Below, piece by piece: positions 2,239-6,431 of a DNA stretch of 20,722 nt; positions within the stretch are counted from its first letter, which is position 1, and each line of letters starts with the position of its first letter. Where the stretch lies: positions 1 to 20,722 of the forward strand of contig JBDRVN010000031.1 in assembly GCA_039801885.1 (NCBI GenBank). The letters run 5' to 3'. The notes beneath the pieces are model-generated. The model saw only the letters and a program-made list of their open reading frames with translations, did not search any database and was not told the DNA's origin. The DNA is from a candidate division WOR-3 bacterium. Lineage in GTDB: Bacteria; Hydrothermota; Tepidihabitantia; Tepidihabitantales; DTDR01. The position numbers were made by a program, and so were the translations under genes.

Positions 2239-3116
2239 ATTACTACCTTTATCCTTTTTTGAGCAAAATAGTTACCAATTAAATTAACAATAAAAGAGAT
2301 AATAAATAAAATTACTCCGAGCATAAATAGAGCAAAGAAATGAGGGGTATTTTTTGCGGTTTCGCCCATTTCGATAGCAATCGTGGTTGTTAAAGTTCTT
2401 GTTGGTTGAAAGAGAGATTTGGCAATTATTGGAGAATTTCCTAACACCATTAACATCGCCATTGTTTCACCAATTGCTCGACCAAAACCTAATAAAATTC
2501 CTGCGATTATTCCTGATTTTGCTGCGGGTAGGACAATTTTTAAAGCGGTCTGGAAGCGGGAGACACCTAAGGCATAACTGGCTTCTTTATAAATTAAAGG
2601 AACCTGAGAGATACTTGCTTCACAGATAGAAATAATTGTTGGTAAACACATTAATGCCAGGATAATTCCGCCATTTAAAACACATAAACCACTTGGTAGG
2701 GAAAAAATTTTTTGAATTAAAGGTGCTAAATAAACTAAACCAAAAAAGCCAATAATTACCGAAGGAAAAGCAGCAAAAAGTTCAATTATCCCTTTTACAA
2801 AATTATATAACCAGGGAATCTTTTTTAGTTCTTCACTTAAGAAAATTGCTGAGAGAATACCGAAGGGAACAGCAATAATCAATGCTAAGAAGGTAACTAT
2901 AAAACTTCCCCATAAATTTGGTAATAAACCATAATCGTTTTTAAAATATCCTGTAGGATTCCAAATAGAATTGAAAAAGAAATCTTTAAAAGAAACAAAT
3001 TTGAATAATCTTAAACCCGAAGATAATAAAAAAAATAGTATAAAGATAATCAATAAAGAAGTTATTAATGCTGAAAGAAAGAGAATAAAGTTGATGATTT
3101 TATGAGATTCTTTCAT
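2235..3116 (-). CDS. pstC: Phosphate ABC transporter permease PstC
   Basis: WNP..YGLLP, AFPSVIIGFFG, EASYALG, GRAIGETMA, IAIEMGE; ATGA overlap with pstA. Confidence 0.95.
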   Translation of the reverse strand: MKESHKIINFILFLSALITSLLIIFILFFLLSSGLRLFKFVSFKDFFFNSIWNPTGYFKNDYGLLPNLWGSFIVTFLALIIAVPFGILSAIFLSEELKKIPWLYNFVKGIIELFAAFPSVIIGFFGLVYLAPLIQKIFSLPSGLCVLNGGIILALMCLPTIISICEASISQVPLIYKEASYALGVSRFQTALKIVLPAAKSGIIAGILLGFGRAIGETMAMLMVLGNSPIIAKSLFQPTRTLTTTIAIEMGETAKNTPHFFALFMLGVILFIISFIVNLIGNYFAQKRIKVVI

Positions 3117-3159
3117 TAATTTTAAATTTTAATTTTCTCACGGTAATTTCAAACAAAAG

Positions 3160-3187
3160 ATTATAATTAAAAATATTTTAAAATCAA
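3160..3187 (-). promoter_or_regulatory. Putative sigma70 promoter of pstCAB
   Basis: TTGATT (3187-3182), 16-bp spacer, TATAAT (3165-3160). The AT-rich context lowers specificity. Confidence 0.5.
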
Positions 3188-3206
3188 GGAGATAAAAAAA
3201 ACAAGT

Positions 3207-3244
3207 GTGTTAAGACATTGTTACCAGGTTAATAAAGGTGTTAA
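3207..3244. promoter_or_regulatory. Possible Pho-box-like direct repeats
   Basis: TGTTAA (3208), TGTTAC (3219, 11-bp period), GGTTAA (3227), TGTTAA (3239), upstream of the pst promoter. Resembles PhoB/PhoP half-sites but the phasing is imperfect. Confidence 0.35.
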
Positions 3245-3536
3245 AATAGAAGATGTATGGAAATTATCAACAAGTTTCTTAATTTAATAGGCTTCCCAAA
3301 AAGAGTTAAAAAGAATTAAAAAGAATAGGAAAATTAAAAAGGGACACCTATGTTTCTATACAAAGGATTATAAAATAATAATGAATAAAGAAGCATATAA
3401 CCAAGGAAAAACTATAAGCCAAATTAGGAAGAGGACTTCTTAAAAAATCAAAGAAAAAACTGGAATTATATAAGAAAAATAATCGGAGAAAGAGAGAAAA
3501 GAAAGGAAAAAAGGTTTTACCAAGGTATGTTAAAAG

Positions 3537-3693
3537 TTATAGCAGACATTTTTTACAATCCCGTTGAGGAAAAGCACAAAAGATTTTTCTTAGGGCATAA
3601 CCGAAAGCACCCCTTAATACTGAGCCTTTATAAACTGGTAAAACAAGATTCTCCTCTGCTTTAAGAATAAACCTTAACTTCCAAAATTTTCAT
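3537..3693 (-). pseudogene. cas6: Cas6 crRNA-processing endoribonuclease, frameshifted and truncated N-terminal relic
   Basis: ATG at 3693 with AAGGA upstream. Removing one A from ATGAAAATTTTGG gives MKFWKLRFILKAEENLVLPVYKGSVLRGAFGYALRKIFCAFPQRDCKKCLL*. The LPxYKGSxLRGAFGxAL..C....C..C pattern is the N-terminus of a Cas6 (RAMP) family. Adjacent to the array and co-oriented with it. Confidence 0.8.
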
Positions 3694-3798
3694 TTTAAAT
3701 TCCTTACTTGTCAAATTATATTTATAATTTAAAAAAAACCAACCGGCTATTAACTTCCCTAAAAAAATATCTTAAAATCCCTTTTTAATCAGGGAAGG

Positions 3799-3955
3799 GT
3801 TAACAAATGCGGAATGCGAAATTAAGAATTAAGATTACTAATATTATTATCACCCTTTCGCTTTGCTGTTTTGCTACTGGCTATATGAAGATAGCAAGAA
3901 GTTGATTTGCAATTTTTCCCACATTCCGCATTCGACATTCCCAATTTGTATAACC
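3799..3955. mobile_element. 157-bp MITE-like element with heptamer-repeat inverted ends, inserted in the trailer CRISPR repeat
   Basis: Left end GTTAACAAATGCGGAATGCGAA vs reverse complement of the right end GTTATACAAATTGGGAATGTCGAATGCGGAATG. Exact 11-bp IR at 3806-3816/3922-3932. Flanked by an exact 23-bp direct repeat (3776-3798, 3956-3978). Confidence 0.55.
3822..3910 (-). pseudogene. C-terminal remnant resembling a four-helix-bundle (TIGR02436/IVP-like) protein
   Basis: Removing an extra TA at 3882-3883 gives ANQLLAIFIASSKTAKRKGDNNISNLNS*, similar to the EANELxAIFxASxKTAK terminal helix of that family (recognised from memory; short match). Confidence 0.5.
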
Positions 3956-4175
3956 AATCCCTTTTTAATCAGGGAAGGAATTTTGACTAAAGAATGACTT
4001 TGCGACAGGAAATCTAAAACCTTTTGAGACATATGAAAATATTTTAAAAAGTCGCAATCCCTTTTTAATCAGGGAAGGAATTTTGAAGAAAAACAAATTC
4101 CAACTCCCACAGAAATGGGGTCCCTACACCAGCGTTCGGTCGCAATCCCTTTTTAATCAGGGAAGGAATTCTGAC

Positions 4176-4484
4176 TCTTGGCTTTTTATCCTTTTGATTT
4201 TTCTTGACTTAAACTGCCTTTTTGTATCTTCTCCCATTTTCTTACTGATACTGCCAATTTATTTATTGATATAAATTACTAAATTTTAATATAAATCATT
4301 ATTTTTAAAAGGTTTAGCAATTTTGTATCATCCCCCCTATTTTTTAAGCCTTTTGAGATTATACAAAATCTTCTTTTCCTAATTCAGTAATTTGACCTAC
4401 GAAACTTTCCTTTTTAAATCGCTCCCAATTTTCAAAGAGCAAAAATCTCTTTTTATATAATAATTAAAAATAATTAAAAGTCAA
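4176..4484 (-). promoter_or_regulatory. CRISPR leader with sigma70 promoter and boxA-like antitermination site
   Basis: AT-rich non-coding DNA next to the intact repeat. TTGACT (4484-4479), 16 bp, TATTAT (4462-4457). TGCTCTTTGAAAA at 4441-4429, just downstream of the predicted start. Confidence 0.65.
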
Positions 4485-4492
4485 TAATAAAA

Positions 4493-4533
4493 AAAGTGGT
4501 AACCTTTAGGGTTGTTTTTTCGTATTATATATA
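4493..4533 (+). promoter_or_regulatory. Putative ECF-sigma promoter, copy A
   Basis: AAAGTGGTAAC, 17 bp, CGTATTATATATA. A close counterpart lies at 13851-13890 (minus). Confidence 0.45.
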
Positions 4534-4958
4534 TGGGGGAAATAGATAAATTAATAAAAGATATTAGATTTAGAATTTTGGGAATTAAAATAAAATACTG
4601 GTGTTATATAATAAAGATGTTATTAGACTTAGAAAAAAGTCTAAAATGGAGGTGCTTAACGCTTGTTATCCTATTTATTTAGTGGCTAAATAATTATCCC
4701 TTTTATATATTTTCAAAGCGTTAGATTTATAGAACAGGGGGATTTTACACTCTTAGAAGAAGGGAGCTGTATAGGAGATAGTATAGTATTTAGTCTCTCT
4801 TATTGATAAGATAAATGATTAGAACTAAGAATTCGATAAACTCTCAATATTAGTTTCTAAAAATAAATAAGATAATTTTCTAAAGGGTGGTTTCGGTTTT
4901 ATGAGGTATTTAATTTTAAAGAGTGAGTATTTATTAATTAATCATAATAACTCAATTA

Positions 4959-4986
4959 TTGACGAAAAGGCAAAATTTATTATAAT
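4959..4986 (+). promoter_or_regulatory. Sigma70 promoter of the radical SAM gene (near-leaderless)
   Basis: TTGACG (4959-4964), 16 bp, TATAAT (4981-4986), then 8 nt to ATG 4995. Confidence 0.7.
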
Positions 4987-4994
4987 TTTTTGAA

Positions 4995-6431
4995 ATGAAA
5001 AGAGAGGAGAATTTAATAATTAGAACAATTAAATTAGGGGCAAATTTAGACCGGTTGATTCCTCTTTCGGCAATAAGGGGATTTTCTAAACTTATTTTTA
5101 ACCTCTTTTCACCGAAGTTAAAAGAAGTTTGTTTGAATAAAGAGCACACGACTTCTTATCAAGTTGGTTTAGACCTCTATTATATGATTTATGCGATGTT
5201 AAATTCGGCTCTCAGGGTTTCTTGGTCAATAAATTCTTTGAATACTTTCTTAAGAGCGATTTTCCAAAATAAGGATGGTCCAAGAATTAAACAAGAATGG
5301 CGAGAAAAATATGGAGAAGGACCGCCGGGCTTTTTAGTTATCTCGCCAACGAAGGCGTGCAATTTAAGGTGTTATGGTTGTTATGCGGATGCGGCAAAAG
5401 AGACTGATAAATTGCCCAAAGAGGTATTTGAGAGGATAATAAAAGAGGCTTTTAATCTTTGGGGGGTGAGGTTTTTTGTTATTTCTGGTGGAGAGCCATT
5501 GATGTATAAAGATAAGGGAGAGGACCTACTTTCTCTTTTGAGCAAATTTCCTGATGCTATCTTTTTATTTTATACGAATGGTTTATTGATAGATGAGGAG
5601 AAAGCGAGAAGGATGGCGGAGATAGGGAATGTGACGCCGGCGATATCAGTGGAAGGTTTTAAAGAGACGACCGATAAAAGGAGGGGAGAAGGTGCTTTTG
5701 AGAAAATCTTAGGGGTGATGGAGAGGTTAAAGAGGAACAAGGTTTTATTTGGTATTTCATTAACGGCGACGCGGTATAATTGTGAGGAGATACTTTCGGA
5801 TGAGTTTATTGACTTTTTCTTTTTCAAGATGGGAGCGGCTTATGGTTGGTTATTTCATTATATGCCGATTGGACGGGATGCTGATCCTGGTTTAATGCCG
5901 AGTCCAAATCAGCGGGTATGGATGTGGCAGAGGAGTTGGGAGATAGTGAAAAAGAAAAAGGTAATGCTTGCTGATTTCTGGAACCACGGAACAGTATCTT
6001 ATGGTTGTATTGCTGGTGGTAGGGAGGGAGGATATTTTCACATTAATTGGCATGGTGATTGTGCGCCTTGTGTCTTTTTCCCTTATGCGGTGAGTAATAT
6101 AATTGATATATATAATCAGGGTGGCACGATAAACGAAGTTTTATTTACACCTTTTTTTAAGAGAATAAGGGAGTGGCAGAAGAGGTATGGGTTTTTATCT
6201 GGTGGTAAAGCGAGTGGTGATTGGTTAAGACCTTGTCCGATAAGGGATCATTTTTTGACTGCCAAAAAAATGATTGAAGAATATGGGGCAAGACCAATTG
6301 ATTATGCTCCGGAGGAAAATTTACGTGCCGAAGAGTATGTAGAAAAAATGGCAAATTACGATAAGGAACTGGAGAATCTTACAAAACCGATTTGGGAAAA
6401 TATCTATTTAAATCACCGAATTAAAAGATAA
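4995..6431 (+). CDS. Radical SAM protein with SPASM/twitch-like C-terminal domain
   Basis: CNLRCYGC motif, SGGEP, FYTNG, GCIAGG...HINWHGDCAPCVF, RPCP. Confidence 0.9.
   Translation: MKREENLIIRTIKLGANLDRLIPLSAIRGFSKLIFNLFSPKLKEVCLNKEHTTSYQVGLDLYYMIYAMLNSALRVSWSINSLNTFLRAIFQNKDGPRIKQEWREKYGEGPPGFLVISPTKACNLRCYGCYADAAKETDKLPKEVFERIIKEAFNLWGVRFFVISGGEPLMYKDKGEDLLSLLSKFPDAIFLFYTNGLLIDEEKARRMAEIGNVTPAISVEGFKETTDKRRGEGAFEKILGVMERLKRNKVLFGISLTATRYNCEEILSDEFIDFFFFKMGAAYGWLFHYMPIGRDADPGLMPSPNQRVWMWQRSWEIVKKKKVMLADFWNHGTVSYGCIAGGREGGYFHINWHGDCAPCVFFPYAVSNIIDIYNQGGTINEVLFTPFFKRIREWQKRYGFLSGGKASGDWLRPCPIRDHFLTAKKMIEEYGARPIDYAPEENLRAEEYVEKMANYDKELENLTKPIWENIYLNHRIKR

Follow-up and report, generated by a model that had tools for sequence, protein, structure and literature searches.

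A probable PF05635 cassette remnant in a terminal CRISPR repeat and the recurrence of the split-repeat signature in related genomes

Results

A terminal repeat split by a 157-bp insert

The 157 bp at positions 3799-3955 of the window (the whole 20,722-nucleotide stretch of DNA from a candidate division WOR-3 bacterium that was analyzed) are probably a dead, internally deleted PF05635 cassette with heptamer arms, inserted in the terminal, type III-A-like repeat of a CRISPR array with a long target duplication of variable length that keeps the Cas6 hairpin on both sides. As the cas genes and every intact cassette gene have been lost in this genus, the locus is a fossil, the copy in the window included, and its interest lies in the pattern to which it led.

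The small CRISPR-like array that holds the insert (3770-4175) consists of two full 37-nt repeats and a split third, with spacers of 51 and 63 nt, and lies to the right of a phosphate-transport (pst) operon and to the left of radical SAM genes. No cas genes were found within the 20,722 nt and, since neither Cas1 nor the Cas10 palm domain nor Cas6 had a match in the assembly of the source genome (G000, 91% complete), the array is an orphan. Comparison with those arrays of relatives that follow cas genes places its transcription on the minus strand, and its features in that direction are as follows:

4457..4484, minus strand: promoter-like sequence in the array leader (TTGACT, 16 nt, TATTAT), directed leftwards towards the repeats; highest consensus score within 3650-4600 (10/12)
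4139..4175, minus strand: leader-proximal full 37-nt repeat, transcribed form GTCAGAATTCCTTCCCTGATTAAAAAGGGATTGCGAC
4088..4138, minus strand: spacer of 51 nt
4051..4087, minus strand: second full repeat
3988..4050, minus strand: spacer of 63 nt, long for this repeat family (approximately 74-88 nt start-to-start in the intact arrays of relatives)
3956..3987, minus strand: upstream half of the split terminal repeat, nt 1-32, comprising the 5' part, the hairpin CCCTGATTAAAAAGGG and then ATT (right-hand match 4/8, then GGTTATAC)
3917..3955, minus strand: cassette arm beside the upstream repeat half, with the end GGTTATACAAAT and then heptamers of the GGAATGT, CGAATGC, GGAATGT type
3854..3910, minus strand: remnant of the last approximately 20 codons of a PF05635 four-helix-bundle gene, in crRNA direction (alignment to the L043 cassette; BLAST to G012)
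3799..3833, minus strand: downstream cassette arm, with heptamers complementary to the other arm and the end ATTTGTTAAC
3776..3798, minus strand: downstream half of the split repeat, a second copy of repeat nt 10-32 (23-bp duplication)
3770..3775, minus strand: degenerate 3' end of the terminal repeat, TTAAG vs. GCGAC in the full repeats; same end in the single repeat of G005

The stretch at 4457-4484 is conserved at a paralogous locus of the same genome (G000:C2) and in the sister genome G005, and its consensus match suggests a role as promoter. The hairpin and 3' end of the repeat (ATTGCGAC) are shared with arrays located behind cas6-cas10/csm-cas1 in G007 and G016; G033 has ATTACGAC. The 63-nt spacer contains TTGCGAC, the 3' end of the repeat, on the wrong strand. 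Adjoining the leader, a motif of approximately 50 bp (4485-4540) reads CCCCATATATATAATACGAAAAAAG..CC.AAAGGTTACCACTTTTTTT on one strand, and its opposite strand ends in ATG followed by short MG(E/R)IDK frames. At least eight copies are dispersed in G000 (the others at C7:1736-1813, C7:32467-32531, C27:2627-2691, C27:20358-20419, C19:7944-8014, C28:4825-4873 and C2:49564-49700) and many more in sister genomes; a small-gene family may have this motif as its common promoter or 5' leader.

The initial annotation had described 157 bp lying between two exact 23-bp copies of the repeat interior. Both copies of this 23-mer (AATCCCTTTTTAATCAGGGAAGG) were located, at 3776-3798 and 3956-3978, and the same letters recur inside the full repeats (4056-4078 and 4144-4166), with start-to-start spacings of 180, 100 and 88. 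The junction letters also read as claimed, the two copies lacking opposite ends of the repeat: the left core copy runs on as GTTAAC... where AATTTTGAC would be expected, and the right one is preceded by TAACC in place of GTCGC. Both repeat halves keep 23/23 core bases, and what is lost is exactly the ends that face inward. The ends of the insert are indeed built from inverted heptamer runs (plus strand, 3805-3833 and 3919-3946), which pair in a stem of 13-14 bp. Folded alone, the insert was no better than its shuffles (z -1.38); folded together with the flanking cores it reached a z of -2.89, and 0/200 shuffles were as good. The non-chance arrangement of the insert rests on homology and recurrence, not on the fold.

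The insert as a deletion derivative of a gene cassette

A metagenome contig very close to G012 (L043) carries an intact array whose terminal repeat is cut after GGGATT and followed by two tandem 485-bp cassettes, with a 19-22-bp copy of the repeat hairpin behind each. Each cassette comprises a heptamer arm, a 122-codon gene in crRNA direction and a complementary arm. The encoded protein belongs to PF05635 (65.7 bits vs. a cut-off of 33.8), as do all cassette proteins tested (6/6 above the cut-off). At L043:1435-1850 (minus strand), the cassette gene has no stop before the downstream arm, and its frame continues through the heptamers and the repeat core.

The insert aligns end to end with the 485-bp cassette of L043 except for an internal gap of approximately 310 bp. 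Common to both are the junction GGGATT/GGTT, the two arms and the last approximately 20 codons of the gene, which are all that is left of a PF05635 gene between the arms of the insert. Homologues of the arm at 3917-3955 are the upstream arm of the L043 cassette and sequences in G007, G004 and G000:C2, and in BLAST searches G012 matched window positions 3806-3910 with 77% identity (E 6.8e-18). Since the alignment holds at the arms and the gene end with approximately 310 bp missing, the insert appears to be an internally deleted derivative of a gene cassette, and we file it as such and not as an intact member. Thus, its non-autonomous character and its insertion into a CRISPR repeat with the interior duplicated, both proposed in the initial annotation, were borne out, and the idea of a mini-element of its own kind gives way to that of a deleted PF05635 gene cassette.

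Further copies with the same ends, which had been expected, were absent from the source genome; in relatives, copies with the same junction were found in G004, G007 and the G012-like contig. In the source genome itself, BLAST of the 157 bp returned the insert only (next best match 23 nt, E 0.0175), a heptamer-dimer search with up to 2 mismatches gave eight matches, three within the insert and the others isolated, and no PF05635 gene was detected anywhere in the assembly. Across the order, 5/66 genomes matched the 157 bp at E <= 0.001, and only G012 covered more than 35 nt. A metagenome scan with a 20-mer from the centre of the insert yielded eight stretches, three of them relevant (L038, L040 and L043); the other five were rejected as chance matches in unrelated G+C-rich DNA. 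Likewise discarded were the two matches of a genome-collection scan with the junction pattern, both of them chance matches inside coding DNA, with the known relatives not among them. No Rfam match was obtained in window positions 3100-5000.

At G000:C2:50096-50285, the whole structure is found again as a paralogue in a more decayed state, with its second core. The surrounding region (G000:C2:49700-50285) has the same leader and a small RHH-like ORF (49860-50070) between two repeats; the third repeat is followed by a cassette remnant with a degenerate second core and then by a tRNA gene.

Alleles of the locus

As predicted, removal of the insert and of one core copy gives a single repeat, which in near-identical form, one base off, is present at the locus of the sister genome G005 (C19) and in one contig of the public run X4, where 3775 is joined to 4144 through 23 shared letters with a skip of 368 bp. 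Both spacers are missing in these two alleles as well, so that they are uninformative on the 157 bp and fit recombination between the outer repeat copies. Indeed, their repeat is best read as a product of repeat-repeat recombination, since it agrees with the leader-proximal repeat in its 5' part and with the terminal repeat in its 3' part. No contig without just the 180 bp was found among the contigs of four public runs, in which missing coverage carries no weight as evidence. None of the public runs with the locus is recorded as RNA. The search for an empty site therefore gave a partial answer: the sole alternative allele lacks the whole array interior, and a clean empty site for this copy of the insert was not found.

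One contig of the run X2 joins 4476 to 3919 through 28 other letters, which implies that a cassette arm and repeat core adjoin a leader-like stretch in another strain or locus. Variant copies of the insert were also seen in X2 material, e.g., with 2 nt fewer at 3882, as in G012.

Split repeats across the order

A search of 66 genomes of the order for the hairpin pattern, with 0 matches for a control pattern, identified 27 loci in 17 genomes, and all loci were classified by eye:

Repeat stopping 2-6 nt past the hairpin, with a heptamer-type element or a PF05635 gene flanked by repeat arms directly beside it (19 of 24 assessable loci): G000:C31, G000:C2, G004:C9, G019:C31, G016:C4, G016:C7, two on G016:C15, G023:C18, G023:C25, G023:C72, G007:C7, G007:C9, G012:C89, G028:C199, G033:C1, G034:C4, G037:C80, G017:C20
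Ambiguous (2/24): G013:C28, G007:C46
No element (3/24): G005:C19, two G030 arrays
Not assessable (3 loci): G007:C17 and G026:C26, which run off their contigs, and G060:C57, which contains N

These counts overstate the number of independent events, as the genomes are kin and several loci per genome are paralogous. A second hairpin copy beyond the element was present at 13 of the 19 loci (degenerate in three of them), and the remaining six show the upstream junction only. The recurrence of the split-repeat signature at 13 loci of related genomes agrees with the initial suggestion that this site bears on how heptamer-flanked cassettes move. Regarding the genomic context, the intact arrays are of type III-A, with cas6, cas10/csm1, csm2, RAMP genes and cas1 in three genomes and csm6 in two of these three.

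All intact genes within arrays (7/7; G034, G037, G017, G016:C4, two in L043, and G019) run in crRNA direction. In a maximum-likelihood tree of 35 PF05635 proteins of the order, built without a broken gene that lies in two pieces, the six CRISPR-embedded proteins require five changes, at least four of them forced by well-supported branches, and show no clustering when compared to shuffles. Hence, the embedded genes come from at least four separate protein lineages, which argues for independent insertions; a CRISPR-specialised protein clade was rejected, as the embedded genes are scattered on the tree. The closest relative of the L043 protein is that of G019 (77% identity), and the others are at most 57% identical and mostly found in genomes without this repeat. 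At least six different heptamer families occur at the repeat site, both the heptamers and the element ends differ between loci, and the duplicated core is always the local repeat variant. Empty hairpins are ORF-less cassette derivatives; in G019, an 81-bp empty unit and the gene-bearing cassette next to it have a downstream arm in common.

The initial annotation had offered an oversized spacer between two independently decayed repeats as an alternative, to which a trailer module that was always part of the array may be added as another version without insertion. Terminal repeats often decay, the spacers are long here (51 and 63 nt) and six loci have a single junction. However, both halves retain every core base and are missing precisely their inward-facing ends, the interior has a homologue in a protein-coding cassette from elsewhere, the cassettes that fill this position differ from genome to genome and are unrelated, and the two G030 arrays have no such module. 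We consider this explanation very unlikely.

Duplication geometry and targets outside CRISPR arrays

The duplication in CRISPR loci measures 18-29 bp and, unlike the duplications made by most known transposases, is not constant, even within one array: in G033, where the elements lie between repeat nt 1-32 and nt 8/9-37, duplications of 25, 29 and 26 bp were observed. Because these halves overlap, removing the element and one copy restores a perfect repeat. Throughout the loci, the hairpin is followed by a further 2-6 nt in the upstream copy and preceded by 0-9 nt in the downstream copy, and the inserts range from 81 to 490 bp.

The flanks of cassettes outside CRISPR arrays (27 + 26 rows) were compared with shuffled controls, and four clear cases were read in detail. 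Here, the duplications abut the arms: two at the 3' end of an hsdS-like gene (26 and 14 bp), one at a tRNA 3' end (16 bp) and one at another site (15 bp); L110 and L116 are further candidates. Most non-CRISPR cassettes have no flanking direct repeat above the shuffles, so that a universal duplication is not demonstrated. Nevertheless, at least some insertions of this cassette type come with a long duplication of variable length that depends neither on CRISPR nor on Cas1.

In L098 (G044:C7) and L096 (G051:C388), the cassette lies near the 3' end of the hsdS-like gene (frame ...LLPKLMSGEI), the last codons of which are duplicated on both sides; the same target is thus used in two genomes. In L117 (G045:C65) and L116 (G038:C138), the cassette has a tRNA gene as its target, the final 16 bp of which are duplicated at the 3' end, and its GCAGATT-type arms resemble the empty elements of the G033 array.

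These results bear on the use of Cas1, which had been proposed for the locus in the window. An aberrant Cas1-Cas2 reaction would consist in the type III-A adaptation integrase placing cassette DNA at off-register sites around the inner palindrome of the repeat. Consistent with it, the element-carrying arrays of G007, G016 and G033 adjoin cas1 (in G007 only, the end of a cas2-like ORF was also read by eye before the array), the palindrome is always spanned by the duplication, and a figure legend in Altae-Tran et al. 2023 (PMC10910872) lists '23S rRNA IVP' among new CRISPR adaptation module associations, the text passages of that paper containing no discussion of IVP. Nonetheless, the duplication matches the repeat borders in 0/13 loci, the distance between cuts varies from 18 to 29 bp, the inserts are unlike spacers in size, no Cas1 was found in the 91% complete source assembly, and the Cas1 proteins checked are plain, 330-residue proteins without a fused domain. 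Moreover, the duplications of 14-26 bp at non-CRISPR targets, among them the ends of the hsdS-like and tRNA genes, indicate that Cas1 is not required. An adaptation-type origin is therefore improbable, and the proposed use of Cas1 gains no support. Involvement of an RT-Cas1 was also rejected, as the Cas1 proteins checked match the Cas1 family only.

Discussion

A possible route of entry

According to the cassette insertion that we favour, the element in the window would have entered the terminal repeat 3-4 nt past the hairpin, duplicating 23 bp. A staggered break, varying in width (14-29 bp), would be the point of entry, and the target would be copied when the break is filled in after joining. 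Intact cassettes encode only the approximately 120-residue PF05635 four-helix-bundle protein and no transposase.

Cas6 of type III systems binds the hairpin of the repeat and cuts at its 3' base, leaving an 8-nt tag. Since the copied piece always spans this hairpin, the upstream crRNA would keep its hairpin and the downstream crRNA both the hairpin and the 8-nt tag, so the series may describe how a CRISPR array can be invaded without being disabled. With a Cas6 site left on each side, the cassette RNA would be cut out of the pre-crRNA as an RNA of its own, a release that would parallel the way in which RNase III excises intervening sequences with PF05635 genes from 23S rRNA.

Neighbouring repeats give the uninterrupted target to the base, which makes CRISPR repeats ideal for recording insertions. 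The arrays thus record the target duplication, its variable width and its strict relation to the Cas6 hairpin, providing a concrete footprint for the insertion mechanism of PF05635 intervening-sequence-type cassettes, a question open since their discovery in 23S rRNA.

Relation to known systems

Among degenerate or orphan CRISPR arrays, the locus resembles others in its three repeats, its degenerate terminal repeat and the lack of Cas1, Cas6 and Cas10 matches in the assembly, its repeat family being of type III-A in relatives. It differs in that the terminal repeat is split by an insertion with a duplicated core and not merely decayed.

MITEs and insertion sequences make a short target duplication of fixed length. 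The insert shares with them its nature as a non-autonomous derivative with inverted ends and flanking direct target duplications. In contrast, the cassettes have no transposase-bearing parent, their duplications are long and variable (14-29 bp), and their ends are not conserved between families, which share only the heptamer-arm design. The Cas1-based reactions, namely spacer acquisition, in which the whole repeat is duplicated, and the integration of casposons, which encode Cas1 themselves, likewise take place in or beside a repeat with a long duplication, yet here the whole repeat is not duplicated and Cas1 was found neither in the element nor in the genome assembly.

Target-primed retroposition of the LINE/SINE type generates long target duplications of variable length. 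The cassettes have in common with it the variable duplication, the unconserved termini and the non-autonomous copies, and their protein falls in the family of Avd, the accessory protein of DGR reverse transcriptases (family placement as given in the relevant passages of PMC10053308), with bAvd matches that are weak and below the cut-off. However, this is a resemblance only: the cassettes show no linked reverse transcriptase, no 3' tail and no 5' truncation pattern.

Together with orphan arrays, the closest known counterparts are the ORF-bearing 23S rRNA intervening sequences (IVS) of Coxiella and Leptospira, whose S23p protein is of the same family (PF05635). As described in passages of the Coxiella study (PMC4990558), the IVS similarly carries its gene in the loop of a terminal-inverted-repeat stem, its ORFs tend to decay, heptameric repeats lie beside the Coxiella ORF, and the element is part of a host RNA precursor, cut to either side of it by a host nuclease. 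In these passages, the origin and mobility of the IVS are called unclear. The cassettes differ in their host, a CRISPR repeat and not rRNA helix 45 (a location in helix 25 or 45 does not apply), in their direct target duplication of 18-29 bp, of which those passages report none for the IVS, and in the putative releasing nuclease, which would be Cas6 rather than, or besides, RNase III.

A wider reading that joins these strands is put forward tentatively, as one that may well prove wrong. Heptamer-armed PF05635 cassettes would form a distinct mobile class that parasitises host RNA-processing sites. In this order, their preferred target would be the type III-A repeat immediately 3' of the Cas6 hairpin, which they would duplicate on entry, so that Cas6 frees the cassette RNA and both neighbouring crRNAs survive, which would make them the CRISPR counterpart of the RNase III-processed 23S rRNA IVS. 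Their long, variable duplications (14-29 bp), unconserved ends and Avd-like cargo would fit a target-primed, possibly RNA-mediated insertion. If this were true, the link between '23S rRNA IVP' and CRISPR adaptation modules would reflect an insertion preference and not a shared function.

Insertion at array ends beside cas1-cas2 would produce such an association signal, and it would offer a plain explanation for the CRISPR association of the protein family listed in the figure legend of PMC10910872. In the papers searched, nothing pertinent to insertion into CRISPR repeats or to heptamer-armed four-helix-bundle cassettes was found; what is new here is the CRISPR targeting, the census and the duplication series. 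As a practical warning, what looks like an oversized "spacer" or an unusual trailer end of an array could be a cassette.

Recombination between repeat cores

A further explanation dispenses with most of the insertions. A unit of cassette plus core would have arisen once or a few times and spread, from array to array as well as inside arrays, by homologous or Campbell-type recombination in the 18-29-bp cores, as a circle or by replacing a spacer, the 23-bp copies being the crossover homology and not newly duplicated target. Tandem units of element and core are in line with this (three identical 99-bp periods in G019 and the two 485-bp cassettes of L043), as are the paralogous leader-repeat-element-trailer loci within genomes (four each in G016 and G007, three in G023 and two in G000) and the recombination between repeat copies that is evident at the locus itself from the single-repeat allele of G005 and run X4. 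On the other hand, the at least four unrelated protein lineages and at least six heptamer families, each flanked by the local repeat variant, would demand many de novo events even so. The junctions also vary within one family and array (25, 29 and 26 bp in G033), and similar duplications are found at single-copy targets, namely the hsdS-like gene end and the tRNA end, where no homology is on offer. We regard block transfer as a minor but real possibility.

Recombination between cores surely reshuffles units, and the tandem units of element and core in G019, L043, G034 and G028 could stem from unequal crossing-over and not from repeated insertion. As the sole process it is insufficient, given the many unrelated cassettes and the targets that are not repeats. 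The insertion of separate cassettes, with later reshuffling of the units, is accordingly the reading that we retain.

On the reverse strand of L084 (G019:C31), positions 1-310 contain at least three letter-identical periods of 99 bp (81-bp hairpin plus 18-bp core) that run to the contig end, which points to a recent tandem amplification or to an assembly-collapsed longer array. A different arrangement was seen in L086 (G016:C15:19000-22400), L085, L087, L088 and L090, in each of which a conserved leader, just one repeat and one or two heptamer hairpins precede a conserved trailer, and spacers are lacking altogether. Several genomes have three or four such spacer-less leader-repeat loci each, and on G016:C15 two of them bracket an ORF of approximately 190 codons.
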